Counted from the stretch's first letter, positions 1 to 62,925 are shown. The stretch is 64,000 bases of DNA from Leucoraja erinacea (GCF_028641065.1 NC_073385.1:13454001-13518000), one strand, 5' to 3'. The notes: a model not told the origin generated them from the sequence alone. A program made the numbers and translations.

Positions 1-506
1 CGGAGCACCCGGAGAAAACCCACGCGGTCACAGGAAGAATGTGCAAACTCCAAACAGACAGCAACCACAGTCTGGATTGAACCTTTGGCTCCAGTTCTTC
101 AATGTCAGCTTCCACCTCCCTCCAGGAGTAACTTATTTGAGCTTCAAATATTTACTTCAATTCACATAGAATTCCATAACGTGCTATAAATTCCAACCCA
201 AGAACATTACAAGAACACAATGTTAACAACAGATTAAAGCACAGATGACATTAGCAACTGGCTGGAGAATTGAAAAATGCATGTGTGCTTTGGCAGAGCC
301 TGCTCCACACAATGCCCGCATGCATCACTTTTATTTACTGGCTTGATGAATGGTCTAATTCTGCTGCTATTTCTCATTCCTCGTGGGACAAGTATTTGCT
401 TTCATAGTGTTCACTTGCTGTTAGAATAATGGGAATTTGGGCAATCGACCAGAGGCAGAATGTTTGGATGATACTCACTGATATAAAAAAGAGTGCACTG
501 AAGATG

Positions 507-1158
507 TAGAAACATGAAGGTGCAGAAGATGACTAATGTACAAAAGGACACACAGTGCTGGGGAAACACAGCAGGTCAAGCAGCTGGTGTGCTTTCAGGT
601 TTGAAGAAGGGTCTTGACCTGAAACGTCACCTCTGCATGTTCTCCAGGGATGCTGCCTGACCTGCTCTGTTACTCCAGCATTTTCTCTTTCTCTCTTCTG
701 CTTTCTCTCATGCTTCTCTCCCTCTCTTTCTCTCCCCCTTTCTCTCTCCCACTCCCTCCCCCTCTTTTTCTCTCTCCCTCTCTTGTTCTCTCCCTCTTTC
801 TCGCTTCAGGTAACTGAAGAAGAGTCTCGACCTGAGACCTGTCACCTATCCATGTTCTCCAGGGATGCTCCCTGACCTGCTGTGTTACTCCAGCATTTTC
901 TCTTTCTCCCTTCCATTCTCTCTCAAGCTCCTTCTCTCCCTATCTCTTTTTCTCTCTCCCCCTCTCCCTTTCTCTCTCCCACTCCCTCCCCTTCTTTTTC
1001 TCTCCCCCTCTTGCTTTCTCTCCCTCTCTCGTTCTCTCCTTCTCTCTCTCTCTTTAGGTAACTGAAGAAGAGTCTCGACCTGAATCGTTACCTATCCATG
1101 TTCTCCAGGGATGCTGCCTGACCTGCTGTGTTACTCCAGCCCGTTGTGCCCATTTATG
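507..1158. mobile_element. Penelope-derived element with three tandem terminal-repeat units and CT-rich spacers
   Basis: Repeat units start at 601, 814 and 1062; TSD ctgaagatg at 498 and 1159. Confidence 0.75.
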
Positions 1159-2259
1159 CTGAAGATGCTTGTTTTCAGATAACCGATCCATGGGTTCTCT
1201 CCTGCAAACAATTAACACAATATAATAAAGAATACTTTTCTCTATTATATCGTTCCCAGAATTATGCCTGGATTAGAGGGTATTAGCTGTAAGTAAAGGT
1301 CGGACAAACTTAGATCGTACTCTTGAAGGTAGATAAAAATGCTGGAGAAACTCAGCGGGTGCGGCAGCATCTATGGAGCGAAGGAAATAGGCAACGTTTC
1401 GGGCTGAAACCCTTCTTGAGACTCTTGAATTCTATTCTATTGAATTCTATTATATTCTTGAAATGTCTTGAGGCTGAGGGGAGACCTGTTAGAAGTATCT
1501 TAGATTACAAGCGGCATGGATAGGGTCAACCGTCAGAACCACTTTCCCTGAATGGAAATCTGTTTCAGTTTAGTTTATGGTCACGTGTGGTGCAGAGAAA
1601 AGCTTTTGTTGCGTGCTTTACCCAAGAGACTTTAAAGACTAGAGGGAATATCTTTAAGATGAGAGGGGCAAAGTTTAAAGGTGATGTGCGGGGCAAAATG
1701 TTGTACACAGAGAGTGGTGGGTGCCCGGAACCTGCTGCCAGGTTTATGGCGGAGGCAGATACGATTGTGGCATTTGAATCGCATGCCAGCAGAGGGGATT
1801 AGTTTAATCAGCATCATGTCCGGCATAGACATTGTGAGCCGGAGGGCCTGTTCCTGTGCGGTACTGTTCTATGCGTTCTGTGTTCTATCTTGTCACAAAC
1901 ACCTTTATTAGTGTTTAATTTATTTCCATTGTACAGCTACCTTTTATTCATTTGGGACTCTGTTGAATCTTTGAACGGGTTCCAAATGAAGGGGCAGAAA
2001 AAAGAAAAAATTGCATTTATATAGGACTGCGACTGCAGTTTCATTTCTCAATGTATTTCATGGAAGAATTATCAAACATAAAACGATACTGCCCTTCAAC
2101 CCACAATGTCCGCGCCACACATAATGCTCAATTAAACTAATCTCCTCTGCCTGCACGTCTAATGAATTGAAGCAGGGTGGAGGGAAATTGGCTATCTTAT
2201 TGAGAGTGCTGTATCAAGGGAAAGTCAAGGCTAATCAATTAACATTATTTGGCACTTAC

Positions 2260-2422
2260 CTCAGCTGTTCTCTGCTTTGCTCCCACAGGTCCTTGGTTTC
2301 CTCGGGTGACATGTGCAGGTCTAAATTGCAGACATTTGGTTTCCGAGGGTAGATTTTCAAACACTGCTTGGCCCAGTATCGCTGCCATCCAGGAAGAAAG
2401 GGATCCGAAATGAACGTGAATC
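2260..2422 (-). CDS. ALKBH1: ALKBH1 exon 3
   Basis: cccttag|[35 protein letters not shown]...|gtaagt, 163 nt. Confidence 0.93.
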
Positions 2423-8400: not shown

Positions 8401-11400
8401 TGTCAGATTGGAGGCCAGTGACTAGTGGGGTGCCACAGGGATCTGTGTTGGGCCCACTGTTGTTTGTCATGTACATCAATGATCTGGATGATGGTGTGGT
8501 AAATTGGATTAGTAAGTATGCCGATGATACTAAAATAGGTGGGGTTGTGGATAATGAAGTAGATTTTCAAAGTCTACAGAGAGATTTATGCCAGTTGGAA
8601 GAGTGGCTGAAAGATGGCAGATGGAGTTTAATGCTGATAAGTGTGAGGTGCTACATCTTGGCAGGACAAATCAAAATAGGACGTACATGGTAAATGGTAG
8701 GGAATTGAAGAATGCAAGTGAACAGAGGGATCTGGGAATAACTGTGCACAGTTCCCTGAAAGTGGAATCTCATGTAGATAGGGTGGTAAAGAAAGCTTTT
8801 GGTGTGCTGGCCTTTATAAATCAGAGCATTGAGTATAGAAGTTGGGATGTAATGTTAAAATTGTACAAGGCATTGGTGAGGCCAATTTTGGAGTATGGTG
8901 TACAATTTTGGTCGCCTAATTATAGGAAGGATGTCAACAAAATAGAGAGTACAGAGGAGATTTACTAGAATGTTGCCTGGGTTTCAGCAACTAAGTTACA
9001 GAGAAAGGTTGAACAAGTTAGGGCTTTATTCTTTGGAGCGCAGAAGGTTAAGGGGGGATTTGATAGAGGTCTTTAAAATGATGAGAGGGATAGACAGAGT
9101 TGACATGGATAAGCTTTTTCCACTGAGAGTAGGGAAGATTCAAACAAGGGGACATGACTTGAGAATTAAGGGACAGAAGTTTAGGGGTAACATGAGGGGG
9201 AACTTCTTTACTCAGAGAGTGGTGGCTGTGTGGAATGAGCTTCCAGTGAAGGTGGTGGAGGCAGGTTCGTTTTTATCATTTAAAAATAAATTGGATAGTT
9301 GTATGGACGGGAAAGAAATGGAGGGTTATGGTCTGAACGCAGGTGTATGGGACTAGGGGAGAATACATGTTCGGCACGGACTAGAAGGGTCGAGATGGCC
9401 TGTTTCCGTGCTGTAATTGTTATATGGTTATAAGCCTATGCGCTGGTCTTTGGCACCAGAGGTAAAAAGTTCTTAGCATCTACGGAACTGTTAATTTTGC
9501 ATACCTCTATCACGTTCCTTCTCAGCTTTCTCTGCTCCAAGGAAAATAAACCCATCCTTTTAGTTTTTTTAGTTTTAGAGATACAACGCGGAAACAGGCC
9601 CTTCGGCCCACTGGGTCCACGCCGACCAGTGATCCCCGTACATTAACACTATCCTACACCCACTAGGGACAATTTTTACATTTACCAAGCCAATTAACCT
9701 ACAACCCTGTACAACTTTGTAGTGTGGGACGCAGGTCACGGGGAGAATGTACTAACTCTGTACAGACAGCACCTGTAGTCGGGATCGAACCCGGATCTCC
9801 AGCGCTGCATTCGGTGTAAAGGCAGCAACTCTACCGCTCATTTCATCCCAGACAACATCTTGGTAAAGCTTCTCCAGTGTGATCATGTTATTCCTATAGT
9901 TCAACAACCAGAATTGTACTCAATATTCTAGCTGTGACTAAATAATAATGCTTTATAAAGTTATACCAAGACCTCCCTGCACTTATGGCCCAGCTAATGA
10001 AGGTGGGTGTCTCATATGCCTGCTTCACCACTCTATCTACCTGTGCTCCCATCTTCAATGATACTTGCACTTGTACACGTTTGTTCCTCAATGCTCCTTT
10101 GAGCCCTACCATTCATAGTGTATGTCCTACTATTATTAGAGCCCCCCCCCCCCCAGAAATGCACAACCACACATTTATAAGGCTTAAATTTTATCTGCCA
10201 TTGCCCTGGCCAACATGAGCTAATTCAATCTCATTCTGTAGCCAAAGAAGATTCTCTTAGATCTCTTTATCTTCTAAGAAGACCCCACAAAATCACCAGT
10301 TTGTTTTGAAAGGAATCAGATTGCATTTCACAAATTGGTGTAGAATTGACATTAAAAGATTGAACAGGAACAGGCCGATCATGATTTCCTAACTCTAACA
10401 TTCAATGCCCCTAACAAAGAAGGCAAGCATACCATATGCCTTCTTTACCACCCTATCTACTTGTGCTGCCACCTTTAGTGAGCTATGAACTTGGACTCCA
10501 AGATCCACATCCATACATTGTCTAACAGGAAAGCAAAAGTATTTGTGAAAACTATTTCAATATTACTTTGCTATTTTACCATTTGCTGCTAAGAAGGTCA
10601 AGTGACAATATTTCCTCGTAATATTGATCCTTTTTTCTCTGCTATTCTCGGCATCTCAACATGTTGACAGCAAGAGTACGGAATCTAACGGTGTAAAAAT
10701 TAGTGTTGATACACGGTGGGTGGAAGGTTTCACACTGAACCCAGAGCTGATGTCTCAATCAATGCATGCCGGCTACCCGAGCCCTCAGTACTATAATGTT
10801 GACGGCACATCAGTAACGGATCCTACACCTCTGTCATCTCCAATTTGCCAGCAGTAAGAGCAACATGACATCAAGGAACAATATCCGAACTGCTGCAGTA
10901 ATAGTTGTGGAGGTGCTGGTGAGGGTCAACTTTCTCCTCTGTGCTCAAACACCGTATATATTAAAATCATTGACCCCAGTGCCCTCTAATATGGAAAATC
11001 CTCCATGTTCCCATAAAAAGGCATATATAATGCTACAGTGGAAGATAGGAGAGTTTTAGAGGGATACGGGCCAAAGGGCGACTCAGCGGCTGTAGAGCAA
11101 CTGCCTTACTGCATCAAAGATCCGGATTCGATCCTCACTACTGATGCTCGTCTGTGGAGAGTTTGTATGTTCTCCCCATGGGTTTTTCTCTGAGATCTTC
11201 TGTTTCCTCCCACACTCCAAAGACGTACAGGTTTGTTGGTTAATTGGCTGGGTATAAAAACATGTAAGATCGCCCCTAGTGCGTGTAGGGTAGTGTTAAT
11301 GTGCAGGGATTGCTGGTTGGTGCAGACTCACTGCCTGTTTCCATGCTATATCTCTAAACTAAACTAAACAACAATTAGGTAGTCAAAAATGCTGGAGGAA

Positions 11401-14400
11401 CTCAGCGGGTGAGGCAGCATCTATGGAGAGAAGGAACAGGTAACGTTTCGGGTCGAGACCCTTTTTCAGACTGATGTCGGGGCGGGGGGGGGGACTTTTT
11501 CCCACCTCCCTCCCGCCGACATCAGTCTGAAGGAGGGTATCGTCCCGAAACGTCACCTATCTTGCTCGGCATGAGCAGGTTGGACCTAAGGGTCTATTTC
11601 CATGCTGTGTCCAAGAGAAGGTGTACTGTATTTATATGGCACCTTTATGCAAGGAATCTAAAATGGCTGATAGAATCATGGGAACATAATACTGTATCTA
11701 TTACTACAACATGGCTTAAAGGCCAGAATTGCTCAACTTTGCAGATTGTGGAGTTTTAGAAAGGATTTAAGAGGTGGGTGAAGATTAAAAATCAAGCTGG
11801 GGGAGCTGGTAACTTTGGATAAGGAAACAATTATAGCTGCGAGGAGGGAGTTATATGCTGGAAGGATCAATAAATAAGGTCATATTGGTTAAATTATGGA
11901 ACAAAAAAGGGAAATGCATATTTGGCTCACAAAGAGTTAGAGAGTGGAACAGAATAGTAAGTTTGTAGGCATATATTCCAGAACAAAAATGGGTAGTGAT
12001 TGTAAGAAAAAAAAAATCATGTCTCTTTATATTCATAAGATAGACCATTCGGCCCATCAACGCTACTCTGCCATTCAATCATGGCTGATCTATCTCTCCC
12101 ACCTAACCCCATTCTCCTGCCTCCTCCCCATAACCTGACACCCAATACTAATCAAGAATCTATCTATCTCTGCCTCAAATATATCAACTGACTTGATCTC
12201 CACACCCTTCTGTGGCAAAGAATTCCACAGATTCACCACACTCTTAACCTGATCTAAAACAGTGTGAAAGATCGAGAGGATGCAGAGGTCTTGAAGTGTA
12301 TTCTGCAGAACTTTAAAAAAGATTAATACTTAGCCAGTTCAGCAAGATAGAGCAGACCTGGTCTCCGGAAGGAGTAGCAAGCAGAAGGAGCATATTTTGT
12401 AGGCAGTAATCATAATTCCACCGGATTTAAAACAGTAACGGAAAAGAACAAAGCTTCAAGTGAGTAAAGGTTCTAAGCTTGGGAACGCCTGTTATACTAT
12501 GCTTAGCTATAATTTAGCAAAAGTGGAAATAGAATGTGTGTGTGTATTGAGAATGAAGGAGTAAGAGCAGGGAGATTGGGTCGACACGGCAGAGCAGTGG
12601 TAAAATTGCTGCTTACACTTACAGCGCCAGAGTCCCGTGTTCGACCCTGAATACGGGTGCTGTCTGTTCAGAGTTTGTACGTTCTCCCTGTGACTGCATG
12701 GGTTTCCCCCCACAAGCCAAACACGTACAGGTTTGTACGTTAATTTGGCTCTGGTAAAAATTGTAAAATGTCCCTAGTGTATAGGATAGTGCTAGCATGT
12801 ACGGGTATCACTAGCCGGCGCGAACTTTAGTTTAGTTTAGAGATACAGCGTGGAAACAGGCCCTTCGGCTCACCGAGTCAGCGCCGACCAGCGATCCCCG
12901 CATATTAACGCTACCCGACACGAGGCACAATTTTTTTTAACATTTACAAAGCCAATTAATCCACATACCTGTACTTCTTTGGAGTGTGGGGAGGAAACCG
13001 AAGATCACAGAGAAAACCCACGCAGGTCACGGGGAGAAGGTACAAACTCCGTACAGACAAGCACCCGTAGTCGGGAATCGAACCTGCGTCTCAGGTGCTG
13101 AATTCGCTGTGAGGCAGCAACTCTACCGCTGGGCCACCCGGCTGCCCGTGCCACACTCTGTGGGCCGAAGGGCCTGTTTCCGCGCTGTATGTCTAAAATA
13201 AACTAGATTCTGAAAGTATTGAGAGATGTTATGAGGAATGAAATCAGAAAATACTGAATTATTCAGCACAGCAGGTCAGGCAGCATCGATGGAAACAGAA
13301 ACAGAGTTAATGGTCAAAACAAATAACAAGTGAGTGAAGGTTTTCATATTTGCTTTTCTAGATGTACAAGGATATTGCAAGGAGTGGAGAAGTTTAGCTC
13401 TGCAGAGAGAGTTACTATGCAGGGACTGTCTTCTTTTAACAAAGATTTAGTGAAGTAAGATTATGCATATCTGGAAGAACCTATTTCGTCCTTGGAAAGC
13501 TTAGGATGTTCAGCATGTCCCCAACAACCCTCGCTCACTGCTACAGATGCGTTCTAGAAAGCATTTTATTGGGAAGCATCACAGCATGGTTTTGGAACAG
13601 CTCCATCCAAGACTGCAAGAAGTTGCAGAGAGTTGTGGACGCAGCCCAGCCCATCACGCACACCAACCTCCCTTCCATTGACTCCATCTACACTTCACGC
13701 TGCCTCAGCAAGGCCCCATCATAATCAAGAACCGCCCTGGTCACTCCCCCTTCTCCCCTCTCCCATCAGGCAAGAGGTGCAGAGGTTTGAAAACGCGTAC
13801 CTCCAGATTCAGTGACAGTTTCCTCCCAGCTGTTATCAGGCAACTGAACTACCCTCTCACCAGCTAGACAGAGAGTGGTCCTGCCCTCCCATCTACCTCA
13901 CAGGAGACCATCGAACTATGGTTTTTAATGGGAAGCATTACAGCAAGCTTTCCCCCCACCCCCCTATCAGTCTGAAGGAGGGTCACAACCCAAAACATTG
14001 CCTTCTCTCTACATAGATGCTGCCTCACCCGCTGAATTTCTCCAGCATTTTTGTCTACCTTTGAACTCTCATCAATCAGACCTCATTGGATTTTATCTTC
14101 AACTAAATGTTATTCCCTTTACCCTGTATCTGTAAACTGTACTCAGCTCGACTGTAATCATGTATATTGACTGGATAGCACGCAGCAAAAAGCTTTTCAC
14201 TGTACCTCGGGACATGTGACAATAATACACAAAACTAAGCTGTGAGACGCGAATTAAGTCACATATATAAGAAAGGTATGAAATTATAAAAGTACTGGAC
14301 AAGCTAGATGCAGGAAAAATGTTCCCAATGTTGGGGGAGTCCAGAACCAGGGGCCACACTCAAGAATAAAGGGGAGGCCATTTAAAACTGAGATGAGAAA

Positions 14401-17400
14401 AAAACTTTTTCAGCCAGAGAGTTGTGAATTTGTGTAATTCTCTGCCACTGAAGGCAGTGGAGGCTAATTCACTGGATGAATTTAAAAGAGAGTTATGGGC
14501 CTGTCCAACCTACGCGACTTTTTTGGCGACTGCCGGCACCCGTCATAGGTCGTTGCAGGTCGCCGAAAATGTTCAACATGTTGAAAATCCAGCGGCGTCC
14601 AGAAAGACTCTACGACTCTTTGGGCGACAGAGGAGATTACTCACCACCATACAGGCAACACTCTGGCGACATGTCGCGAGATGAAGCTTGTATGATTGTG
14701 AGTAGTCGCCCAAAGAGTTGTACCTTGTTCTGGTCGCTGCTGGATTTTCAACGTTGAAAATTTTTGGCGACCTGCACGACCTATAATTTCTGCCGGCAGT
14801 CGCCGAAAAAGTCGTGTAAGTGGGACAGGCCCATTAGATAGAGGTCTAGGGGCTGAATCAAGGGATATGAGGAGAAGGCAGGCACGGGTTACTGATTGTG
14901 GATGATCAGGCATGATCACAATGAATGGCGGTGCAGGCTCGAAGGGCCAAATGGCCTCCTCTTGCACCTCTTTTCCATGTTTCTATATTGCAAACAGTAG
15001 TGCAAATTTGGAATTCTTTGCTCAAAAAGGTGATGGAAAAGGAAGAAAACATTGATAAAGTACAAGGGCGGGTATCTGAAGCTGCACAATTTAAGGCTCT
15101 GGACTGGGAAGTGGGATGATCTAAAATAAACCTTTTTTAATCGCTAGTATGGATTCAACAGACATTGAGCTCCTTCTGTGCTATCATGATTCTATGCTTT
15201 TTTTTAAAATCATATCCATGATTTTTATATCTACAAATCAAGAGGCGACCATTTGAACTTTGCACATCATGGGCACAAGAAACGCAATTGTTTTTAAAAG
15301 GGTGAACAATAATTGATGTACTTTGTCATTAGTGGATGAGAGGAAAGAAAGGGCTTTAGGAACATGTTATAATTATACAAAGGGTTCCTTTTTTATTCAA
15401 ATTGTAGTTTTCTCATAATTCATTCCTGCCTGAAGCATAAATCAATTGTTTTTTTATTACATGAAACGGAGATACACTCAATTCCTTGGGTCGCATGTTT
15501 ATTCACGATATTAGCCAAATATTCTGTGGTGGGCGATTTGATTCCAAAGAGAAAGCGAGTGGTAAAAGATTGAATGCAAGGGTAAGCAATTAAATATAGG
15601 AAGTGGCAAAAGCAGATCAGAATCAATCTCATCTCTCACTTTTCCAATAATTGTGGTGGCTCCAGCTGAAGCAGACCTTTCTCCTTTGATATAACAGTAG
15701 TTAGCAACCAGACAAACAGCCCACCCCCCCTTCAAATATGCTCAACATCAGTTTAGTTTAGTTTATTATTATCACGTGTGCCCAAGGTTCAGTGAAAAGC
15801 ATTTGTTTGCCTGCTATTCTCATCATAAGTCTATACATGATCACAATGAAGCGGTCCACGGTGCACAGATGATAATGAGTATAATAGTCAGTTCAAAGGT
15901 CTCCATTGAGGTAGATGGGAGGTCTAGCTAATGAGAACCATGCCACAATCTGAAAAAGCTGTATATGCACCTGTAAAGTAAATGAATAAATACAAAAGTG
16001 CAATAATGCTGTGCATCTATTACCGTATTTCCCTGCAATGAAGACTCACCTGCGTCGATGACGCACCCCCAGTAGCTACCCGCCAACCACAACCACCACC
16101 AGTTGCGCCTGTGCCGAAGGACACCGTGGCTGGCAGGCGCTGAGGTGGTGGCCGGTTCCACTGTCCAGTCCCGGCGGCTGCTCGCAGCCACCCGAGCTGC
16201 TGAGTTGCTGGCATGATCCCCGACCCCCTCCTTCTCAAAGCTCCTACCCTCCCCGCAACTTTACTCCTGGCGGCTCAGCCAAGTTTGCTACTTTGTGCTG
16301 TCCCGGGCCAGAATCCCCACACGCTGTGAATGGAAATCTCCCCCCCCCTCCCCCGCCCCCAGCGGTGCTGTCCTTTTAAATCAGCTGCCAGCAATGAGGC
16401 ATAGACTTGGCTATCCCTCAGTAATGCAACATCGTTCTTGATGTTGCTGTACTGAGGGATAGCCAAGTCTATCTTTCTTGGCTAACAATCTAACTAATTC
16501 GGCCTCCAAGACACAGATACATTTTCGGGCCTTATTTTAGGGTAAAATATAGCGTCTGAATTGCCGGGAAATATGGTACTTTCTGTGCTCATCCCCAATC
16601 CTAGAAGTAATTCTTAATATGTAGAAGAATAGGTAACGTAACCTCTTGAGCTCTTCCCGTCATTCAATTAGATCATAGCCAACAAAATGTGTAGGAAGGA
16701 ACTGCAAATGCTGGTTTACACCAAAGATAGACACAAAATGCTGGAGTAACCCAGTGTGACACGCAGCATCTCTGGAGAGAAGGGTCTGAAGGGTCTGAGA
16801 CTGAGGGTCTGAAGAACTTAGTCTGAAGATGCGTCTCGAACCGAAACATCACCGGTTCCTTCTATCAAGAGATGCTGAGTTTCTCCAGCATTTTGTGGCT
16901 ATCTAGATCATAGTTAAGCCAGGCTCGTCCGAATATTTTAATTTTTCTTTCATTCCTTTGTAGCTTTCATAAATCATATCTTGGATTTAAAATTAATAAA
17001 TGAGCTATCAATTGCAATTTACTGAGCAGACTTCCAATTTTTTTCACACACTTATGAATGATTTTTAATATAGTAAATTTATAGCCAAGTATGGAAATAG
17101 AAGTTTAAGATTAATCTCTTCAATGAAAACCAACAAAGCTGCAGATGCCGTAAATCTGAAATATAAACAGAAAATACTGGAAACACCCAGAAGCCAAACA
17201 GCATTCTGTACCAAAGTAACAGATACAATTTTAGCTTCAGGATTCTTTATCATAACTGGATCTCCCAAATTGCTTAAATCTATCAATTTCTTAAATCCTG
17301 CTGTCTTTTCAAAATTTAGACTATTAGTTGACTGGCAAAGAAACCAATTAAGCTAAATCCCTCTACAGGAAAAACAGAAATGCACGATTGGAAAGTACTG

Positions 17401-23166: not shown

Positions 23167-26100
23167 GTGAGTGGCGTCTCTTTTCACTCAGTCTCTGCTG
23201 CTGCTGCTCGGGCTTCGGCCGAATGTTATTTTTATTTCTAAAAATAAATACATGTGCGGGTTGTGTTTAGATTGTGGCGATGGAGGGAGCTTAAGATGAA
23301 GCTTAGGTTTGGCAGCACTGGGCCTGGAGTTTAGCAGGGTGAAAGGTAGGGGGGGGGACCTCATTGAAACATCATACATACAGAATAGTGAAAGGCATGG
23401 ATGTGGAGAGGATGTTTCCACCAGTGGGAGAGTCTAGGACTAGAGGTCACAGCCTCTGAATTAAAGGACGTTCCTATAGGAAGGAGATGAGGAAGAATTT
23501 ATTTAGAGGGTGGTGAATCTGTGGAATTCGTTGCCACAGAAGGACGTGGAGACCAAGTTAATGGATATTTTAAAGGCAGAGATGGATAGATTCTTGATTA
23601 GTACTGGTGTCAGGGGTTATGGGGAGAAGGCAGGAGAATGGTGTTGAGAGGGGAAGATTGATCAGCCATGATTGAATGGCGGAGTAGACTTGATGGGCCG
23701 AACGGTCTAATTCTGCTCCTGTCACTTATGTAGGGCCCCAACCCCGAGTATGGCAGCTCCTCCTTGCCCATTGCCCCCTGGACTCAATGTGTGGCTGTAT
23801 TTATGTTGAAATTAAAACTGGAGCTGTTAGAAACACTCAGTACGTCGCTCAGCATCTGTGGAAGGAGAAATGTATTTGTGTCATTTAGAGAGGTTTATGT
23901 TGAAGACCGCCATAATGTGTAGGAAGGAGCTGCAGATGCTGGTTTACAGTTTACACTCAAAATGCTGGAGTAACTCAGTGCAACAGGTAGCATCTCTGGA
24001 GGGAAGGAATGGGTGATGTTTCTGGTCGAGACCCTTCTGAGACCGAGGCTGAAGAAAGGTTTAGACCTGAAAAATCACCCATTCCTTCTCTCCAGAGATG
24101 CTGCCTGTCCCATTGAGTTACTCCATCCTTCATCAGAGGATTTAATTTGGGAATTTCAATGTAACTGGATATTTGTGAAGATAAATGACAAATTCAGAGC
24201 AAAAATAAAACAAACTGCTGGAGGAACTCAGCGGGTCAGGCAGCATACGTGGAGGGGAGATATCTAGTAGCGAGAGCTGAGGAGAAGGGATGGGGGCAAG
24301 AAATAGGTGAATACAGGGGTAAGGAATGGCCAATGAGGTAGAGTAAATAACTGCCTCCACCCTCAGACGGTGGTGGAGGCAGGTTCTCTGGCTGCTTTCA
24401 AGAGAGAACTAGATCGAGTTATTAAAAATAGCGGAGCCGGGGGATATGGGGAGAAGGCAGGAACTGGGTACTGATTGGGAATGATCAGCCATGATCACAT
24501 TGAATGGCGGTGTTCTATGTTTCCTCAGTAATTTGTTTTTTACTCATGATTTTCGTATCTTCAGTCAACAATTAATAATGTAGGGCTGTTTCGACCACTA
24601 ACAAAGGATCTTCAACATTAGTTTTCTTTCTCTTTGCATAGATGCTACCAGACCTGTTGAGTGTTTGCAGCATTTTATATTTTTATTTAGTAATTCCAGC
24701 ATCTATGTTTTTTTCATTAAAATGTTAATACTGTTGATGGTTGGGAACTTGCTGGTAAAGGAGGGTGTCAATTGGAACTTTTGGAAATAAATTGATGGGT
24801 ACCCAAGAGATGGTAATTATAGGAACATGGGGAGTGGGGTTAAAATTGGGGTGCCTATACTCTCTTGTTTCAAAGGAAAATACGCTGTACCTAAGATCCT
24901 TAAGAGGTGCTGTATTTATTTTAATTTACTCATTTTCTGCATCTGGAATAATCTTTTGTTCATTGACTCCAGGATCCATTCTTGCAGTGTGTGGCACTGG
25001 TGGATTATTACTGATTTGTGTGAACTCATTTGAAAGTACCTTTCAAAGAGAATTTCCAGGAACTACCAGAATCTTTCTTAGCAAGAGGAAAATGATCCCT
25101 GTCCACTGTGTGAACCTTGTATTCGAAGTACAGTGTTGACTTAATGGATTGATCTACAAGGGATTGGCATGGATACAGTGAGCCTAACTACATCCCCATC
25201 TGTTGATACAATTCAAATTATCCTCATCGAAGTTAGTCCCATTTGTGTGGGAATATGTGTATATCACGCTAAACATTTCTTCTCCATATACTTGTCCAAA
25301 TGTTTTTTTGAAATGTGTGTGCATCAACCACTTTGTTCCATAGCTTTTGTGTGAAAAAATTGCTACTTGGGTTCTCGGCTCTCTCCTTAAATCTGTGCCC
25401 TCTAGTTCTTGACTCCCTGATCCTGGGAAAAAGACTGTGCATTCACTCTATCTATGCCTCTCGTGATTTTATACATCTCTATAATTTCACCCCACAGACT
25501 CTTAACATTCCTAAGATTGAAGTCCATGCCTGCCCAGCCTCTCCCTCTGACCGAATCTCTCAATACCTGGCAACATTCTTGTAAAGGTTTTCTGGACATT
25601 TCCAGTTTAATGGCTTTTTCCCTATAACGGGGTGACCAAAAGTTATCAGACTTTTCTAAATGTGGCCGTACTAATTATGTACACAAGTGCAACATAACGT
25701 AAACTGTCATATTCTAGTTCATTTCTTAGTGAGATGCCTGGAAGGAGATTTCTAAACTGGGAAACTTGTATTGAAAGCAGAATTGGGAAAAGTTAGTGGT
25801 TCAAAAATATCTGTACACTGTACGTTCAAGGAAATATTTATATATTTAATCTATAATATTTTTAGTCAGTATATTATTGGATGAATAAATCTGTATTTTT
25901 GCAGAAGAAATCAAGGAATATTTTGGACAGTTTGGGCCAGTGAAGAAATGTCTGCTTCCATTTGTAAGTATTTAATTACCTTCAATCGTATCCATTTTAA
26001 TTGGCATAAGCTAAAAGTTTGTTTCCTATTTTCAGTAGATTTGGCTGTATTTTTCAATTTTCAATGTCAATTAAAAGGCGTCCGTCTAGATACACCATTG

Positions 26101-52800: not shown

Positions 52801-55800
52801 CACCAATGCTGTTTGCCTCGCCCGCTGAGCACGGGTCTTTTCTTCAGCTTCCAGCTGGTCCTGCGATAGCTGCGTTGGCGCAGGAAGAAAACTTTAAAAA
52901 TAAAAATAAAAATAAATGTTACTCCTTCTGATACACAGGAGCAAGGTAAAGACATCCCGACTTCTCCACTGTGGAACCACAACTGGAACCGAAGCACAGC
53001 GGTAAAAGCACGATCTGCCTGACCTGGTTACTTTCGTTCAGAGAACATCAGCCTTTTCATATCACATTGTGAACCAAGGACAAGGTCCAGCTGAATAACA
53101 GCTGGTGTGGGGCCATAAACTCCATGCCACGGGTACTGGATGCATAAAATCACTACACGTAAAATCTAAGCAAATTATACCTGGAACAGTTCCATTCTTG
53201 TGAATTCTTGTATTGTACGTGCTATTCAGTGATTTTTATATTTTTCGGCGAACTCTTTTTAATTAGGGATCTCGTGAAAGATTGTCTTTTCAATACAAGG
53301 TATGACTGTGGAGACTGTCCACACCTTTGGTGAGCACTTTATTTTGTAACCTATCCCTGACATACTTTGCCGCAGAACAAATATGTGAGAAACTTTTGAT
53401 CTGTGATCTGCCATATAAAAAGCTAAAGAACTCAAGAACTCATGGCATTGGGGGAAGCTTTAATGTGAATTGAAGAGCGGTCTTTAAATTGAAGATAGAG
53501 GAGTCCTTTACAGAATGGGACAATGTAACCCAGCAATTGATTCCTATCTCTATTATCTACTTACAGGAACCAGAGAGTAAAGCATCCAAGTTTGTTGATA
53601 ACATGAGAAAAGGTGGGATGTAAAGCTTTGATCAGGACGTATGGACTCTGCCACAGGATAGGTTGAGTGAGTGGGTGAAAACTTGGCAAAAAGGATTTAA
53701 TGCAGGAAAGTGATGCTTTTTAAAAAATATTTTATTTATTAGAAGTGAGTATAATGCATTGGTACAAAAACGATGTTAACATATTACATTCTCTGTACAA
53801 CTTCCCCCTTTTTTTTTAAAGAGAGAAGTGAGAAAGGAGAGAAGAAAAAGAGGTTGTGAAAAGTGAAGAATAGATTAGTGAGCGTGGGTGAAAAACCAAT
53901 AAAGAAAAAGTGAAAGAGAAGGAATAAGTGAAGAAGGAAAGCAGGAAGGAGATTATTCCATTGCCACAGTGAGATGATTTTTTAAAACATATATTAAATC
54001 ATCTTTCACCCATACCTGAAACTGTTGGTTTTCATGATACTATGTCACCACATGAATCCAAGAAATCAATAAATGGGGACCAACTCCTTAAGAATAGGTC
54101 TTGTTTGTCTATTAGGAGGAGTCTCATTTCTTCCAAATGTGCTGTGTCCAGCATATTACTGATCCACATTTTAAATGTTGGTATATTAGCATTTTTCCAA
54201 AATGTAAGTATAAGTTTTTTTGCTGTTATTAACCCATAATTAAAAAATGAGCTTTGGTGTGTATTTAATTTGTTCCCATCTCCACTTACTCCAAATATAA
54301 TCATTTCAGTGTTAGGTTCCATTTTTGTCTTAAATAGCTTTGAGAGTGAGGCGTTGGTAGAAGCAAACAGAAAGGAGACTATTAGAGTTATAGACCAAAC
54401 AACATGGAAGCAGGCCATTCAGCCCAATTCACCCGTGCTGGCCAAGTTGCTTAGCCTAACCTAGACCTTAGCCTGGCCCACATTCCAGGAAGGCTTTCCT
54501 ATTCATGTACCCAAGAGCTTTTAGTATTGTATTTTCCTTTGGAAGTTTTTTCACAGAGGGTACGTACCGTGGTCTGCGTGAAAATGTTGCATTGAACAAC
54601 ATTTAGAAGACATTTGGACAGTTACATGGATACGAAAGGTTAGAGTGCGATGGGTCAAAGGGATAATGTTAGGTGGAGCAGAAACAAAATGCTGGAGCAA
54701 CTCGGCGGGACAGGCAGCATCTCTCAAGAGAAGGAACGGGTGACGTTTCGGATCGAGACCCTTCTTCAGTCTGAATATTGACCCAATATTGTGTCTACCT
54801 TCGATTTAAACCAGCATCTGCAGTTCTTTCCTGCACATTAGATGGAGCATCTTGGTTGACACGGATGAGTTGGCCTCAAGGGCATTTCCGTGCTCTGTTA
54901 CTATGATAATGTACAAACATACAAATGTGGAGCATGAGTAGGCCCCTGGGCCCCTGGAGCCCACTCTCCATTTAATACAATCCTGACCGACCTGACTGTA
55001 ATCACAACTGCAGTCATCCTTTATCCATTAAATAGATCTCTTATTTTATCTACCAGCAATTGATCAATTGAAAGATGTAGCTTGGAAATGGGCCCTTCAG
55101 CCCACCGAATCCACATGGACCATTGGTCACCGATTAAAACTTGTTCCACGTTATCCCACTTTCGTATCGTAGAAACATAGAAAATAGGTGCAGGAGGAGG
55201 CCATTTGGCCCTTCGAGCCAGCACCGCCATTCATTGTGATCATGGTTGATCGTCCCCAATCAATAACCCGTGCCTCCCTTCTCCCAATATCCCTTGACTC
55301 CACTAGCCCCTAGAGCTCTATCTAACTCTCTCTTAAATCCATTCAGTGACTTGGCCTCCACTGCCCTCTGTGGCAACGAATTCCATAAATTCACAACTCT
55401 GGGTGAAAAAGTTTTTCTCACCTCAGTCTTAAATGACCTCCCCTTTATTCTAAGACTGTGGCCCCCTGGTTCTGGATTCGCCCAACATTGGGAACATTTT
55501 TCCTGCATCTAGCTTGTCCAGTCCTTTTATAATTTTATATGTTTCTATAAGACTCCCCCTCATCCTTCTAAACTCCAGTGAATACAAGCCTAGTCTTTTC
55601 AATCTTTCCACATATGACAGTCCTGCCATCCCAGGGAGCAATCTCGTGAACCTACGCTGCATTGCCTCAATCACAAGGATGTCCTTCCTCAAATTAGGAG
55701 CAAAACTGTACACAATATCCACTCCGGAAAGTTAGGGGAGAAATTTACAGAGGCCAATTAACAGCAAACGTGCACATCTTTAGGATGTGGGAAGAAACCG

Positions 55801-58800
55801 GAGAAAACCAATGCAGTCACAGGATGAACGTGCGAACTCTGCAAAAGGTCAAGATTGAACACGGGTCTCTGGCATGGCGTTGCAGCAGCTCTACCAGTTG
55901 AAGAAAGGCAAAATACTGGTATAATTCAGTGGGTCATGCTGCAACCCTGTTGAACGTGGATAGGTGATGTTTTGGGTCAGGACCCTTCTTCAGAGCCCAA
56001 CCTAAAAGGAGGAGCCCGACCTAAAATGTCACCTATCCATGTTCTCCAGGGATGCTGACCGACCTGCTAAATTACTCCAGCATTTTGTGTCTTTCTTTGG
56101 TAAACCAGCATGAGCAGTTCCTTGCTTCTCCAATTCTACCAGCTGTGCCACCATGCCACTGTTTGGCGTTCTTAACAAAGACAATGTTTTGATAATCAAC
56201 ACAGAACATAGAATCGTACAGCAAAATAACAGGCTCCTCGGCCCACAATATATGTGGCGAACATGATGCCAAGAACATCTCTATTCTACCTGCGAATAAT
56301 CCGTATGCCTTCATTTTCATATGCCTATCCAAAAGCCTCTTAAATATCATAGTATCCACCTCAACGACCAACCCTGGCAGCACATTAGACACTCGCCACC
56401 CTCTGTGAGAAAAAGTTGCCATGCACATCTCCTTTAAACTTTGCCCATCACTACCCCTAGTATTTGATTGTTCTATCCTGGGAACAAGGTTCTGGCCGCC
56501 TTAACATACTTAACCATAGTTTCAGAACTGCTGTAGCAGGTGTTTGAGAGGAAAAGCACATGATCAAAAAGATGCTATAAAAGATTTTGTACAAAGAACA
56601 TTGGTTGAAGTGCTCAAGGGTTGCCAATGGTACAATGTAGCAATGAATCACATTGGTCGTGATATTTCTGCGAATGTAAGTATGAATGTACAATAACCTA
56701 AATTCTATATAGTTGATGGGAAAGTGGGAGAATAAAACAGCTTGTAGGCTGGGAGTAAAATGGTCTTAATGGTCATATTTATGACATTGTTGTTTTGAAT
56801 TAATACTAATAAAAGTTAATGGAAAGGTTGAATAGATTCAGCGTAGGTTCACCCGGTTAATTCCCAGGATGGCGGGACTGACATATGATGAAAGAATCGG
56901 TCGACTGGGTTTGTATTCATTGGAATTTAGAAGGATGAGAGGAGATCTTATTGAAATATATAAAACTCTTGAAGGATTACAGGCGAGATGCAGGAAAAAT
57001 GTTCCCGATGTTGGGGGAGTCCAGAAACAGGGGTCACAGATTACAAATAAGGGGTAGGCCATTTAGGACTGAGATGAGGAAAAACTTTTTCGCCCAGAAA
57101 ATTGTGAATCTGTGGAATTTTCGGCCACAGAAGGCAGTGGATGCCAATTCACTAGATGTCTTCAAGAGAGAGTTAGATTTAGCTCTTAGGGCTAAAGGAA
57201 ACAAGGGATATGGGGAAAAAGCAGGAACAGGATACTGATTTTAGATGATCAGCCACAATCATATTGAATGGCCGTGCTGACTCAAAGGGCCGAATGGCCT
57301 ACTCCTGCACCTATTTTTCTATGTTAATAACCGGTCTCCAAGGTTGGGTTAAGAGCATTGACATCATCGGTACAACTGCATTAACATCCAAAATTTAAGT
57401 CAACACCATTATTGCTATAACCTAGAAGTGACTCCAAACGAAAATCTGTTAATCTAGTGGGTCCCTAATTTCTACAAGTCTAACATAAATCAACAAAAGC
57501 ACCATGAGGTAGAATAGCAAGAAAGAGTTATAAAGTTCGATGCAATGGTACATCAAAATTGTTGTGGTTCTAGTCAAGGTTCAAAGGAGGATTTTGATCG
57601 AGACCTATTTTACAGTACCTTCCTACGAAACTATTAGACAAATAATAATATGCATAAGGCTATATTTAATTTCACCAAAGTTGCAACTACCTGAAATGAT
57701 CAATTCAAATTACAGAATCCATGAATCATGCAACATAAATTGTGATTTGGCCCATTTGTGTCTTTGTCAAGAACTTGAAATTAGGTAACATCTGTACATT
57801 GGCGAGACCAAGCGCAGGCTCGGCGATCGTTTCGCCGAACACCTTCACTCAGTCCGTTTTAACCTACCTGATCTCCTGGTTGCTCAGCACTTTAATTCCC
57901 CCTCCCAATCCCAATCTGACCTTTTTGTCCTGGGCCTCCTCCATTGTCAGAGTGAGGCCCAGCACAAATTGGAAGAACAGCACCTCATATTTTGCTTGGG
58001 TAGTTTACACCCCAGCAGTATGAGCATTGACTTCTCTAACTTCAAATAGCCCTTGCTCTCCCTCCATCCCCTCCCCAGTTCTCCCACCAGTCTTACTGTC
58101 TCCGACTACATTCTATCTCTGTCCCGTTCACTCCCCTGACATCAGTCTGAATAAATGCCTCTTACCCTAGACGTCACCCATTCCTTCTCTCCAGAGATGC
58201 TGCCTGTCCCGCTGAGTTACTCCAGCATCTTGTGTCTACCTTTGAAATTAGGCCCCCTCTGCACTCACCAGGGTAATGCAATTTTTCCTCATTCCTCATT
58301 TAAAAAAAAAAGAATAACATTTCCTTTTTATTTATTTCCAATGTGTGCATCTTTTTGAGGTGTTGAGAGTTACCATGGCAGCAACTATGTGGTAACGCCA
58401 GATACTACACACCATCACAATTAGCCCATTACCAACAAACCTTAGTTTTTAAGGTCAATGAGATTAATCACATTTAGAATGTATCAAAACAGGATCCCAG
58501 AAAACAAAATTCAAGAAACTTGGACAACTATTAAAATAGCAAAAAATGCGTTCCCTGAGACCAATGAGATCAAGTGTATGAGGGGAATAGATCAGGCAGA
58601 CCCACTGTCTCTTGCCCAGAGTGGGCGAATCGAAAACCAGTGTGCATACGTTTAAGGTGAAGGGGGGGGAAAGATTCTAAAGGAACCCGAGGGGTAACCT
58701 TTTCACACAGGGTGGTGGGTGTATGGAACAAGGTGCCAGAAGAGGCAGTTGAGGCAGGGACTATCATAGTGTTTAAGAAACATTCAGACAGGTACATGGA

Positions 58801-59860: not shown

Positions 59861-60914
59861 GTTGGGATGGAAGATGTTGTTAGTGCGGCTTTTCAGGACC
59901 AGTTGGTCATGGTGTCACCTTTGTACTTGTTGAATTGCGACGCTGCCCGTGTTTACCAGTTGATCAGATTATGCACGTAGCTAAAAATATATGGTGCTGC
60001 CATGTCAAATAGCATGAATGAGGGAAAGGTCACTGCCAAAGAGAATATTGTAATTAAAAGAAGCAGCGAAGAAAAGTTACTCAATATTATAAACTGAATA
60101 TTGGAATTTACAGATGCAGCGATGGAAAGAGTTACTCAGCGTTACACACTAAAAATGCTTCCAAACGAGCTGAGTAGCACATGATAATGGGTTTATTGCA
60201 AGTTGCATAAGTGCTGACAGTTCATATAGTCTATGTTCCTCAGTATCGACATCACCAATGTTCATATTTCCGTTAAATAGGTTGACCAGATAGCAAGGAT
60301 GAAAAATCTGGATTTTTTTAAATTCAAGAGTTGATTGGGTAATAGTGCAAATAATAAAATTAAATCGCATTTGTATTGATCACCCAAGACTCAGCTGACA
60401 TGTGGAGCAAATGCTTGAGTACTTGGTGGTGGAGTGTTGAGGAAGGGAGTGTGGGGAAACCCTAGTGGCTTTATACTTGCCAAAACAGTACTTCAATCTG
60501 GAGGTCTTTAATCTTTGATCTCTACATGTGCACGGTTAGCATCAGGCTTCTGCAATGGACTATGGAAAATATATCAAATGGCTAACTTCCATCAATTAAA
60601 AGCAAAGCACAGTAGATGGTAGAAATCTGGAAAAAACTGAAAATGATCAATAACTCAGCAGGTGAGATAACGCGTGGGGAGAGAGAAACTGACAGCGTTT
60701 TAGGTGAATGGGAAAATGTAGATTAATGAACCACAATTTCGGATAACAAAAAAGACACAAAAGTGCTTGAGTAATCCTGTGGATCAGGCAGCATCTCTGA
60801 AGAACATGGATGGGTGATGTTTCGAGTTGGGGGAGGGGGTGAAGGAAACTGGAAGGGGGTGTGGCAAGATAAAGCCTGGCATGTAAAAGGTGGATACAGA
60901 TGAGGGGGGAGGGT

Positions 60915-61535
60915 TGATCAAAGTCAAAGTCAAAGTAACTTTATTGTCAATTCAATTACGCAACAGTAGTTACACATGGGATCGAAATTACGTTTCCCCA
61001 TACTCCAAATGTGCAAGTAATATTAAAAACACAGACAGACAACATATCAATAAAAATAGACAATAGACATACATTATTTAAAATATTAAAATATTCACAG
61101 TATGCCAAAATGTAGCAAAACCTTTGAGGTATTTTAAACAGGGTGCAACAATGAAAGGTGCAATATAGAAAAAGTGCAAATTCCGTACTGGAGACATTGA
61201 GCCAAAGTTATTTTCACAGTTTGTTGTCTTTGTTTGGGTACTGTTCATGGAATTTACTTAAGTGTGTTGAGTAGTCTGATGGCCTGAGGGAAAAAGCTGT
61301 TTTTGAATCTGGTGGTTTTGCTCCGCATGCTGCGGTAGCGCTTACCGGAAGGTAGGAGGGTGAACAGTTTGTGTGCTGGGTGAGTGGTGTCTTTGATAAT
61401 ATTGCTTGCTCTCTTGCGACAGCGAGAAGGGTATAGGTCCTGGATTGCTGGTTGGGGTGATCTGGTGATCTTCTCAGCTGTCCTCACCACTCTCTGTAGG
61501 GCCTTCTGGTCAGCAGCAGAGCAACTGCCATGATA
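60915..61535 (-). mobile_element. Rex1/Babar-like LINE 3' fragment
   Basis: KALQRVVRTAEKI...HPAHKLFTLLPSGKRYRS...FKNSFFPQAIRLLN; short (CTTTGA)n tail. Confidence 0.8.
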
Positions 61536-62344
61536 GGCAGATGGCTGGAAAAATGGCTTCATTCCAAGCATAGAATTCATCCAACCCCCCTTTTTTTTTC
61601 CTGTCATCCACTCTCCACCTCTCCCAAGTGCCCCAACTGGACGCGCACCTATTTCTACCCTTCCCCCTCCCCCTCCCCTTCCACTTCAATTCCTTCCTCT
61701 AGCCTCTTCAATCCCTTTGTCTCACACCTTCTGTCTTTTCATTTCTGGCCTTTATCCAACCAGCTGCCAGTATACAGCTCACCTCTTCACCTGTATACAC
61801 CTATTACTTGCCAGGCTTTGTCCTGCCCCTCTTTCCGCCTTCTCCCTCCCTCCCCCACCCACCCGTCACTCGACATCTATCTGAAGAATGGTCCTAATCC
61901 TAATGTCACCTGTCCATGTTCTCCAGAGATGCAGCCTGACCTGCTGTGTAACTACAGCACTTTGCTTCCCTATTTTTCAGGTGAATGATCTTTCTAAATG
62001 GTCATCGGCCTGAATTGTTATCTTTCTTTGTCTAGCAACAGTTTGATAGTTTGCAACATTTTTAGTGATATTTTCCAACATTTGCACACACTGACCAATG
62101 CTGGGCCACCTGGTCTATAGTTTCATGCTTCAGTCTCCCTTGTTTCCTGTGTAATGGAGCTACGTTTGCTGTTTTCCAGTCATCCATGAATTGTTATTGA
62201 CGCATTCTTCACCTCTGCTGCCACTTCATTTAAGGCATTAAGTGAGATTTGTTGTCTTAATCAAGAAGGCAATTTTAACAAATCAATGCGCTAATTAAAA
62301 TCCAAAGTGCCCAAGAAGCCAGAATTTGAGTAACCTAAATGAAT

Positions 62345-62925
62345 GTATAGGAAAGAACTGCAGATGCTGGTTTGCACCGAAGATAGACCCAGAATGCTGG
62401 AGTAACTCAGCGGGACAGGCAGCATCTCTGGAGATAAGGAATGGGTAACGTTTCAGGTCGAGACCCTTCTTCAGATGAGGGTAGTAGGGCTGGAGGAGCT
62501 TCAAGAGTAGGGCATGAGACGACTTTGAAGCTGGTATTTGTGGGAGAGGGATGGAGAGAGAGGGAATGTACAATCCAGTGGTATGATTATTGATTTCTCT
62601 AACTTCATGTAACTCTTGCATCCCTCCCTCTCTCCATCCCTCCCCCATCTGTCGTACTAGCTTCAAAGTTATATTGTTGACTCTCATTGTCTATACTCAT
62701 TTTCACCCAGGCCACAGCTAACAATGGCCTGTTTCCTCTTATCATCGTTACTTTTTTGCATATCTTTCATTCATTTGTTCTATATCTCTTTACATCACCG
62801 TCTGTCTCTCGTTTCCCTTTCCCCTGACTCAATCTGAAGAAGGGCCTCGACCCGAAACGTCACCTACTCCTTTTCTCCAGAGATGCTGTCTGACCTGCTG
62901 AGTTGCCCCAGCTTTTTGTGTCTAG
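62345..62925. mobile_element. Penelope-derived element with inverted terminal-repeat arms
   Basis: Minus-strand motif at 62443-62474 and plus-strand motif at 62834-62864, flanking Penelope 3' sequence. Confidence 0.75.

Follow-up and report, generated by a model that had tools for sequence, protein, structure and literature searches.

The window, the whole stretch of 64,000 nucleotides of skate (Leucoraja erinacea) DNA that we analysed, holds many short, often fold-back units with a hammerhead-like motif, and the question is what wrote these units into the genome and whether their ribozymes still act. The reading we favour, with a probability of roughly 0.78, is that they are 5'-truncated 3' ends of a Penelope-like element (PLE), likely Neptune-type, with a hammerhead in its terminal repeat, copied from uncleaved RNA and decaying, likely neutrally.

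All 21 sites listed in the original prediction, which had counted about 20 recurrences, hold a motif copy, and we found two further core-bearing copies (21123 and 58147). The resulting 23 copies correspond to ∼1 per 2.8 kb of the window, close to the claimed one per 3 kb. C3 of the minus-strand copies lies at 1420, 11469, 21464, 24041, 41519, 42482, 54769, 55993 and 62474. A 25-nt motif gives 15 matches at ≤3 mismatches and none in 100 shuffles, and a profile search of the window recovers 38 pieces of a repeat of ∼95–130 bp; the footprint of the repeat family is ∼5.7 kb (8.9% of the window).

The majority state of the copies comprises CUGANGA, a bulged base, a G-C pair closing helix II, GAAA, a palindromic 15.2-16.2 and UH. 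Helix II had been drawn as 5 bp with a 2-nt loop (GGGTC/GACCC); it consists of 4 bp and a tetraloop, CUCG or, in subfamily B, UUCG. The proposal that helix II varies with its pairing kept holds between subfamilies, which differ by a single U-A to U-G change, but fails between copies, where differences (16/137 non-CpG cells) are no fewer than in downstream DNA (85/908, gaps included).

Comparison with other elements allows the motif to be identified as a genuine minimal type I hammerhead by descent, as originally proposed, since invertebrate relatives share a hammerhead after GIY-YIG with covarying helices I and II. The motif lies 91–301 nt after the protein match in 23 of 59 relative loci with at least 300 nt of room (0/2950 shuffles), although a small number of host metagenomes supplied these loci, which are therefore not independent. 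Helix I reaches at least 3 bp in 18 of those 23, which the search did not require. Across 16 sequences, six of eight pairs show two-sided change and 92% of cells are paired; none of 500 shuffles reaches this score, and slid controls stay at ≤43%, supporting covariation at both helices. Comparison with Rfam, suggested earlier, returned no hammerhead among 14 matches at E ≤ 1, a result uninformative for minimal motifs; all 14 are miRNA models on fold-back hairpins, below gathering scores. Pattern scans of viral and prokaryote genome contigs gave no motif match.

The end of a GIY-YIG ORF runs into the motif in five insertions. This bears out the earlier link to the Penelope terminal repeat and supports placing the motif, by sequence, in the 3' terminal repeat (pLTR) of a PLE with a Neptune/Nematis-type GIY-YIG. 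The ORF matches the Pfam GIY-YIG model with E = 0.0018, just under cutoff, and is 59–66% identical to elasmobranch PLE-like proteins; homologs of 800–890 aa contain RT and GIY-YIG. The linker before the endonuclease, CNRKRCYTC, fits CX4CX2C and thus the CX2-5CxxC class that is diagnostic for the Neptune/Nematis type (PMC8557442), and the motif CIHCSRC has two Cys inside the GIY-YIG core. The clade is likely Neptune-type, an assignment based on the linker motif, not on an RT tree. Within the window there is no RT domain and no full-length element, and the ORF copies are 5'-truncated. The insertions are the following (those with no single strand are marked unstranded).

20290..21203, plus: 5'-truncated PLE; C-terminal part of the GIY-YIG ORF (20381-21010; CX4CX2C linker, two Cys in the core), C/T-rich 3' UTR, short 3' end; hammerhead 21123 mostly deleted; 13-bp TSD with 1 mismatch
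57790..58241, plus: 5'-truncated PLE; GIY-YIG end, 3' UTR and short end; hammerhead 58147 broken; 11-bp TSD
34474..34792, plus: 5'-truncated PLE; remnant of the ORF end, 3' UTR and short end; hammerhead 34702 with its CG palindrome changed to CA
42355..42630, minus: 5'-truncated PLE with tail; hammerhead 42482 (CG changed to CT); inside a CR1-like fragment; 13-bp TSD with 1 mismatch
62343..62924, unstranded: fold-back; minus arm with tail (core 62474), plus arm from ORF end to short end (core 62834)
507..1158, unstranded: short inverted arm and three tandem plus-strand units (periods 213 and 248 bp, C/T-rich spacer); cores 601, 814 and 1062 all broken; 9-bp TSD
1325..1423, minus: single ∼95-bp unit of subfamily B, starting 3 nt before the core; core broken; 9-bp TSD
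11377..11560, unstranded: fold-back; cores 11469 (minus) and 11527 (plus) both broken; junction in C-rich UTR
13950..14061, plus: single copy; core 13972 broken
16688..16904, unstranded: fold-back; left-arm tail; core 16823 broken; 10-bp TSD
18797..18880, minus: single copy; hammerhead deleted beyond its first six bases
21382..21557, unstranded: fold-back; junction at the quasi-palindrome adjoining core 21464; right arm partly replaced
21671..22212, unstranded: fold-back; both ends tailed; an unrelated insertion of ∼320 bp interrupts the right arm (core 21773)
23916..24125, unstranded: fold-back; left tail; cores 24041 (minus) and 24049 (plus) broken
32047..32241, unstranded: fold-back; left tail; core 32148 intact without helix I; putative cut after 32175; 15-bp TSD
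39764..39841, minus: old single fragment starting inside the hammerhead
41445..41641, unstranded: near-perfect fold-back of subfamily B; core 41519 intact, helix I of 1 bp; right tail; 15-bp TSD
54680..54836, unstranded: fold-back; core 54769 intact without helix I; right arm reduced to short end and tail; 12-bp TSD with 1 mismatch
55900..56126, unstranded: fold-back of subfamily C; core 55993 broken; right tail; 8-bp TSD
60750..60905, minus: UTR-bearing copy; hammerhead lacks its 5' half
61640..61967, plus: copy with long C/T-rich UTR; core 61881 broken
13266-13293, 24210-24256 and 24632-24676: older fragments similar to that at 39764..39841

The long TSDs reported around the short units are real: TSDs of 8–15 bp flank 10 of 21 insertions, compared with 2.6% of random intervals. 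The short units are nested 3' ends of the PLE. Eleven are fold-backs, whose arms are inverted head to head and whose junctions are all different; a tail of ∼35 bp is present at one end in seven, at both in one and at neither in three.

We propose that the element's own RT/GIY-YIG likely writes these units into the genome from uncleaved RNA. The endonuclease would nick the two strands 8–15 bp apart, and reverse transcription would begin at either of two internal sites, ∼+92 or ∼+128 nt from ribozyme C3; because there would be two such sites, the ∼35-bp tail would be optional. One relative family also has two 3' ends. If both nicks prime, two cDNAs would be joined head to head, presumably by annealing and most often at the near-palindrome TCAG-T-CTGA, which overlaps helix I and the core, and joining may often bring small deletions or template jumps. 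Such twin priming and joining would give rise to fold-backs with a tail usually at one end. Two-strand cleavage, internal priming and an uncleaved template are carried over by analogy from published systems, for which comparable architecture is reported (PMC8557442, PMC3846280, PMC11167929 and PMC4209133). The ribozyme would have a role, if any, only in intact tandem elements, through dimer or protein-assisted cleavage, and the dispersed copies would be passengers.

The hammerhead in the window copies is decaying. CUGANGA, GAAA, CG, UH and at least 3 bp of helix II are retained in only 5 of 23 copies (32148, 41519, 54769, 62474 and 62834); five indel copies stand out of register in the core-integrity table, but are broken regardless. 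Helix I has 0–1 bp in all five core-intact copies (with an A-A mismatch at its first pair in 32148) and 2 bp in UTR-bearing copies, and 4 bp occur only in the core-broken 601 copy. Copy 21123 has an internal deletion in the motif. The core, helix II, the palindrome and a helix I of at least 2 bp occur together in none of the 23 copies. In the fold-backs, helix II is predicted to be unpaired (P ≤ 0.04), so that the hairpins are predicted to bury the hammerhead. CpG-type changes run through the family in the contigs of all four public runs, affecting 14–17% of depth at G12 and 16–37% at G16.2. Non-CpG substitutions within the family in the window amount to 4/119 (3.4%) in the core and 39/562 (6.9%) downstream (p = 0.21), a trend that leans to conservation and is not significant at this sample size. 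Excess core conservation within the family, whose absence the original prediction named as evidence against it, is thus not found at this sample size; covariation is present in relatives, and the lower core rate leaves room for weak constraint in source copies.

The 5' ends of the units pile up 0–5 nt before CUGA rather than at the cut site. By hand curation, 18 of 27 arms without UTR in the window start at −5 to 0, or 14 of 23, from 10 insertions, after four ambiguous arms were dropped by hand, and none of the 27 short arms starts at the cleavage site (+26 to +30). We also mapped loose ends in the four public runs, all of which are contigs, none on record as RNA, and as such cannot show RNA starts. 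In these, 3' loose ends accumulate where the tail ends (42357 and 42364) and opposite-strand joints occur at 42482–42487. Loose 5' ends pile at −2/−3 with AT-rich, low-agreement flanks, and are among the best-supported in three of four runs; in those three, the first loose letter at −3 is G on the element strand. In run X19, this boundary is joined to heterogeneous flank in 674 and 597 contigs, and full units with other sequence on both flanks occur in contigs as well. Among the best-supported loose ends listed from the contigs, there is no peak at +26 to +30. One X16 contig starts at 42454, the base immediately following the cut site, but the start of a contig is not informative.

The sharp −2/−3 boundary is more discrete than random truncation predicts and thus counts against plain truncation. 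The ends may be run-off copies of the transcript 5' end, and this reading refines our favoured explanation without replacing it. The short units would be run-off (strong-stop-like) cDNAs of a PLE transcript starting at TCAGTCT, which overlaps helix I and which we take to be initiator-like, the consensus being short and common; primed at two internal sites of the 5' repeat, the copies would have a fixed length of 95 or 130 nt and integrate alone or as fold-back arms. We regard it as possible, with odds of about one in four. The boundary with its heterogeneous flank and G, the free-standing full units and the arm starts given above all fit, and an anole PLE has internal priming near the 5' part of its transcript (PMC11167929). 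However, 8 of the 10 insertions are fold-backs, whose junction is already explained by annealing at the palindrome, and in copy 1420 AGT falls inside the TSD (microhomology). Most relatives lack TCAGT at the corresponding place. In Drosophila virilis, moreover, a 75-bp intron has its end at helix I, and the transcript start lies 46 nt upstream of this intron (PMC2377424 and PMC4209133). As in D. virilis, the C/T-rich tract and CAG directly before the core of the skate copies resemble a 3' splice site; there are no intron-type ends among the 15 joints listed from the contigs (106 further joints exist), and the candidate donors close to the stop codon would add nothing to the length of helix I. 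A coding start beyond the ribozyme is not supported: one copy is open after an ATG, but others have a stop in the tail. The fullest form of the idea, slightly more doubtful again, is that the elasmobranch PLE transcript begins on an initiator that forms helix I, that run-off cDNAs of 95 or 130 nt enter the genome in tens of thousands, pairing at the adjacent palindrome to form fold-backs, and that this takeover shrank helix I to 2 bp. If true, one mechanism would account for solo and inverted pLTRs, and the repeats would form a very high-copy natural record of PLE integration intermediates.

The original prediction had seen a separate retrozyme-like family, that is, non-autonomous units derived from ribozyme-processed (circular) RNA and mobilised in trans by Neptune elements, which we consider unlikely. 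Very high copy number and the discrete 5' boundary agree with it, as does the single tandem trimer, in which helix I of copy 601 could reach 4 bp; non-LTR retrozymes derived from pLTRs, one chondrichthyan included, have been reported (bioRxiv 10.64898/2026.07.22.740005). Against this, the only tandem array in the window is 601/814/1062, with all cores broken (TRF lists no array of the unit), so that no two consecutive ribozymes are intact, and paired units lie head to head. Nor do arms or listed loose ends begin at the cut site. Five copies carry ORF ends, so the unit is not independent of PLE coding sequence, and tails are distributed as in ordinary PLE insertions. With fold-back junctions that all differ, the nested PLE 3' ends lend no support to such a family.

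Far less probable is that some intronic copies act as ribozymes on the pre-mRNA of ALKBH1, SLIRP or SNW1, as trans-dimers or with protein help. The catalytic core is kept in five copies, core-bearing copies are antisense in 11 cases and sense in 6, and in the anole PLE, protein assists cleavage by the ribozyme (PMC11167929). Nevertheless, all five core-intact copies lie in fold-backs with 0–1 bp of helix I and hairpins predicted to exclude helix II, and of the three within mapped genes or the likely SNW1 span, 32148 is antisense. The orientation bias, counted in the window only and with low power, reveals no significant depletion of sense cores (p = 0.33). Because none of the 23 copies has a complete fold, host gene transcripts are likely not cut by the window copies, and the potential self-cleavage sites proposed for introns are not supported as working ones. 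A MITE-like self-propagating hairpin is rejected on the fold-back junctions in the window, all of which differ.

We return to the 5'-truncated PLE ends and compare them with known systems. With endonuclease-bearing (EN+) PLEs of the Neptune/Nematis type (Craig et al. 2021, PMC8557442; Arkhipova et al. 2013, PMC3846280), the family shares a C-terminal GIY-YIG with the CX2-5CxxC linker, heavy 5' truncation, an inverted 5'-truncated arm, a palindrome at the inverted junction, a 30–40 bp tail mostly at one end and TSDs of variable length. Unlike them, it makes up ∼9% of the window, mostly as arms of 50–130 bp with no full-length copy, and its 5' boundary is sharp and falls right ahead of the ribozyme core. 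The minimal metazoan PLE hammerheads (Cervera and De la Pena 2014, PMC4209133) have the same CUGANGA, bulged base, G10.1-C11.1, GAAA, palindromic C-G replacing helix III and UH, and likewise occur mostly as single motifs from truncated PLEs, with some close opposite-strand pairs. Helix I has 2 bp in the main subfamilies of the window, compared with typically 4–5 bp (2 bp reported in D. virilis, PMC4209133), and helix II has 4 bp; we found no skate or ray family in the text of that paper. PAc/Poseidon of Anolis (Frangieh et al. 2024, PMC11167929) also has two 3' ends ∼35 nt apart downstream of the ribozyme and inserted copies that are not bounded by the cut site; it belongs to a different clade, and the PAc ORF starts inside the ribozyme, whereas we found no reliable downstream ORF start in the window family. 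Non-LTR retrozymes (Cervera and De la Pena 2020, PMC7229834; Li et al. 2026 preprint) are similarly short, non-coding and pLTR-related, with a type I hammerhead and TSDs >4 bp, but their units follow one another head to tail, with intact ribozymes in succession, and give circular RNAs, whereas the window units are broken, stand singly or inverted and are often linked to the ORF. As it stands, the result is one of repeat annotation: the ribozyme-bearing end of a PLE accounts for an abundant elasmobranch repeat, which is neither a new retrozyme nor a cause of self-cleavage in introns. How PLEs integrate is poorly understood, and the family provides material on this, namely thousands of short insertions in which TSDs are readable, 3' ends are of two kinds and the 5' boundary beside the ribozyme is sharp. 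Whether the template is cleaved, whether twin priming occurs and where the inverted arm comes from can thus be addressed by counting in an existing genome assembly.

The original prediction placed a hammerhead-like motif across the window, and a copy is present at each of its positions. The 25-nt motif, allowing at most three mismatches, occurs at 15 places in the window and at none in 100 shuffles. It forms the 5' part of a longer repeat, reaching ∼65 nt beyond the putative cut site (+28; positions are counted from C3, the start of the ribozyme core, which also names each copy). Searching with a profile of 12 window copies recovers 38 repeat pieces, which we grouped by hand into 21 insertions and three small old fragments; 23 of the pieces reach the core, and the family occupies ∼5.7 kb (8.9% of the window).

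The proposed tie between the motif and the terminal repeat of a Penelope-like element (PLE) with a GIY-YIG ORF is borne out. In five insertions, the end of the ORF is joined to the motif via a C/T-rich stretch, and since these insertions run upstream into the ORF end, the motif sits in the PLE 3' terminal repeat.

PLE insertions reaching the end of the GIY-YIG ORF
20290-21203
57790-58241
34474-34792
42355-42630
right arm of 62343-62924

The longest ORF piece matches the last 200 residues, at the C terminus, of reverse transcriptase (RT) plus GIY-YIG proteins of 800-890 aa; skate proteins give the top identities (70-80%, partial cover). It contains a CX4CX2C linker, a type by which Craig et al. 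(PMC8557442) recognise the Neptune and Nematis clades. Downstream of the 18797-18880 copy, but not part of it, is an older GIY-YIG fragment (18530-18757, minus strand). The GIY-YIG piece is also found inside several elasmobranch gene models, and one shark protein (P0004) reads through the PLE 3' UTR into LMKGLRPKR (residues 509-517), the frame-0 translation expected of the ribozyme motif.

The 3' side is common to all copies, the extent toward 5' varies, and the repeat has two 3' ends, at about +92 and about +128. Among 11 head-to-head fold-backs, the ∼35-bp tail is found at one end in seven, at both ends in one and at neither in three, one of which carries a degenerate tail-like stretch. Of the 21 insertions, whose bounds were set by hand, 10 lie between direct repeats of 8-15 bp; 2.6% of 5000 random intervals score equally high. 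All fold-back junctions differ, and most lie on or beside the near-palindrome TCAG-T-CTGA, at which two cDNAs would anneal to give the junction. Arms at 18872, 21123, 21466, 32143, 54771 and 60827 have deletions or replacements starting just after CTGAAG, or lack part of the ribozyme, which suggests template jumps at that site; short, repeated copies of the bases there occur at 16783-16823. One fold-back's right arm is split by an unrelated, possibly SINE-like insertion of ∼320 bp (21808-22130).

Judged from the sequences of its relatives, the window motif is a hammerhead by descent. Cervera and De la Pena (PMC4209133) report this minimal motif from several PLEs, Neptune among them. We collected 80 related metagenome loci, probably animal host DNA and, coming from few samples, not independent. 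Of the 59 with at least 300 nt beyond the protein match, 23 carry a CUGANGA...GAAA-palindrome-UH motif 91-301 nt downstream of it (0/2950 shuffles), and 18 of these 23 have a helix I of 3-6 bp, though the search ignored helix I. Twelve relatives' motifs, hand-picked for diversity, were aligned with four window copies: 92% of cells are paired, and both partners vary in 6 of the 8 pairs, with a covariation score reached by 0/500 shuffles (slid controls pair ≤43%). At the third pair of helix I, the three cells left unpaired belong to window copies. Two 3' ends, one short and one long, are seen in one relative family as well. One locus (L010:126) has a different hammerhead-like motif, with a GC palindrome and a helix I of 6 bp, at 2.4 kb upstream of its GIY-YIG match.

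Self-cleavage by the window copies, as predicted from sequence and folding, probably does not work. CUGANGA, GAAA, CG, UH and a helix II of at least 3 bp are all kept in 5 of 23 copies (32148, 41519, 54769, 62474 and 62834), in which helix I has 0, 1, 0, 1 and 1 bp because a junction or substitution took away its 5' strand; a complete hammerhead is found in 0/23 window copies. Even UTR-bearing copies without damage can form just 2 bp of helix I before an A-C mismatch. All five core-intact copies sit in fold-backs, and whole-unit folding puts helix II at P≤0.04; in two single-copy or local folds, P is 0.03 and 0.4 for helix II and close to 0 for helix I. The potential cleavage sites originally proposed for host introns are thus probably not functional in these copies. 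PLE minimal hammerheads are reported as inactive monomers with low dimer activity (PMC4209133).

Nor is the expected excess core conservation significant. Non-CpG substitutions number 4/119 in the core and 39/562 downstream for 12 subfamily-A copies (p=0.21; p=0.07 with gaps counted) and 10/192 and 67/890 pooled over 19 copies (p=0.35), a trend favouring the core; these tests omit 11527 and 21773 (cut short), 21123 (deleted) and 814 (a tandem duplicate). Aligned to the 42340-42640 copy, contigs of four public sequencing runs show A in place of G12 at 14-17% of depth and in place of G16.2 at 16-37%, as CpG decay predicts. Sense copies are not significantly depleted in the mapped genes (6 sense versus 11 antisense core-bearing copies, p=0.33).

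Host genes in the window
ALKBH1: exons at 22873, 5779 and 2423, minus strand
SLIRP-like gene: plus strand; best PDB match SLIRP (E=0.001, one exon), first exon assigned by eye
SNW1: minus strand; two exons match SKIP_SNW

One ALKBH1 exon shares 96-100% identity with most of the shark and ray proteins among the matches listed, which marks the genome as an elasmobranch's. Three further SNW1 exons were placed by peptide motifs that we take to be characteristic. Across 2259-52893, ALKBH1 and the SLIRP-like gene lie head to head, ∼200 bp apart, followed by SNW1, presumably the same order as in other vertebrates. The window also holds a 170-N gap near 22320-22490 and fragments of other retrotransposons, a CR1-like RT (7040-9356, RVT_1 E=1e-27) and an RT with an ALKBH8_N match (48494-49397).

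The 5' ends of the arms are not random: by hand curation, 18 of 27 arms without UTR start at -5..0, or 14 of 23 without four ambiguous arms, with fold-backs making up 8 of the 10 insertions concerned. In one run (X19), loose ends fall at -2 (674 contigs) and -3 (597), and at two tail-end positions (1135 and 622). Flanks of the -2/-3 ends in the runs are AT-rich and agree poorly with one another; in three runs, the loose sequence at -3 opens with a letter that is G when read along the element. A plain explanation would be microhomology to the target, as seen in the 1420 copy. Run-off copying of the transcript's 5' end is a tentative and rather unlikely alternative: TCAGTCT at the ribozyme's 5' side, which we take to fit the initiator consensus, hints at a transcript start there, and palindrome annealing of two cDNAs, which already covers the fold-backs, leaves over the 5' ends of single copies. 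The bases at the boundary also resemble a 3' splice site, with a C/T-rich tract and then CAG one base before the core at 21090-21123, 42483-42515, 58115-58147 and 62800-62834. The D. virilis Penelope ribozyme is described with a 3' splice site at the same place (PMC4209133; PMC2377424). None of the 15 joints listed from run contigs is of splice type; sense-oriented copies in introns could become exonised.

In the main texts of mostly open papers, we found no account of this family in skates or rays or of a fixed 5' boundary at the ribozyme. The family may already be annotated, for example, in Dfam or Repbase. Elements of this kind have been described before, as have the ribozyme and the fold-back anatomy.

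A separate retrozyme-like family, as first proposed, is not supported. Li et al. (bioRxiv 10.64898/2026.07.22.740005) derive retrozymes from PLE terminal repeats and ask for two consecutive complete motifs, and non-LTR retrozymes form tandem arrays that carry type I ribozymes and give rise to circular RNAs (PMC7229834), whereas the unit's sole array in the window (601/814/1062) has three broken cores. This trimer, with C/T-rich spacers within one 9-bp TSD (507-1158), is the one retrozyme-like arrangement present; its 601 copy, in contrast to the main subfamilies, could pair over 4 bp in helix I. No arm in the window starts at the cleavage site (+26..+30; 0/27), and no peak falls there among the best-supported loose ends of the four runs. 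This makes uncleaved RNA the probable template, which is also the main template reported for PLE integration (PMC11167929). Ordinary PLE insertion accounts for the family. PLE hammerheads are mostly single motifs of truncated elements, sometimes in close opposite-strand pairs (PMC4209133). In PLE integration, both target strands are cleaved and extended, and two internal priming sites set the tail (PMC11167929). In the published signature, insertions are truncated on the 5' side, come with an inverted, likewise truncated copy and have a tail of 30-40 bp that is often confined to one end (PMC8557442); TSDs measure 8-10 bp, and inverted junctions have palindromes (PMC3846280). The window units match it in truncation, inverted arms, one-end tail, TSDs and palindromic junctions.
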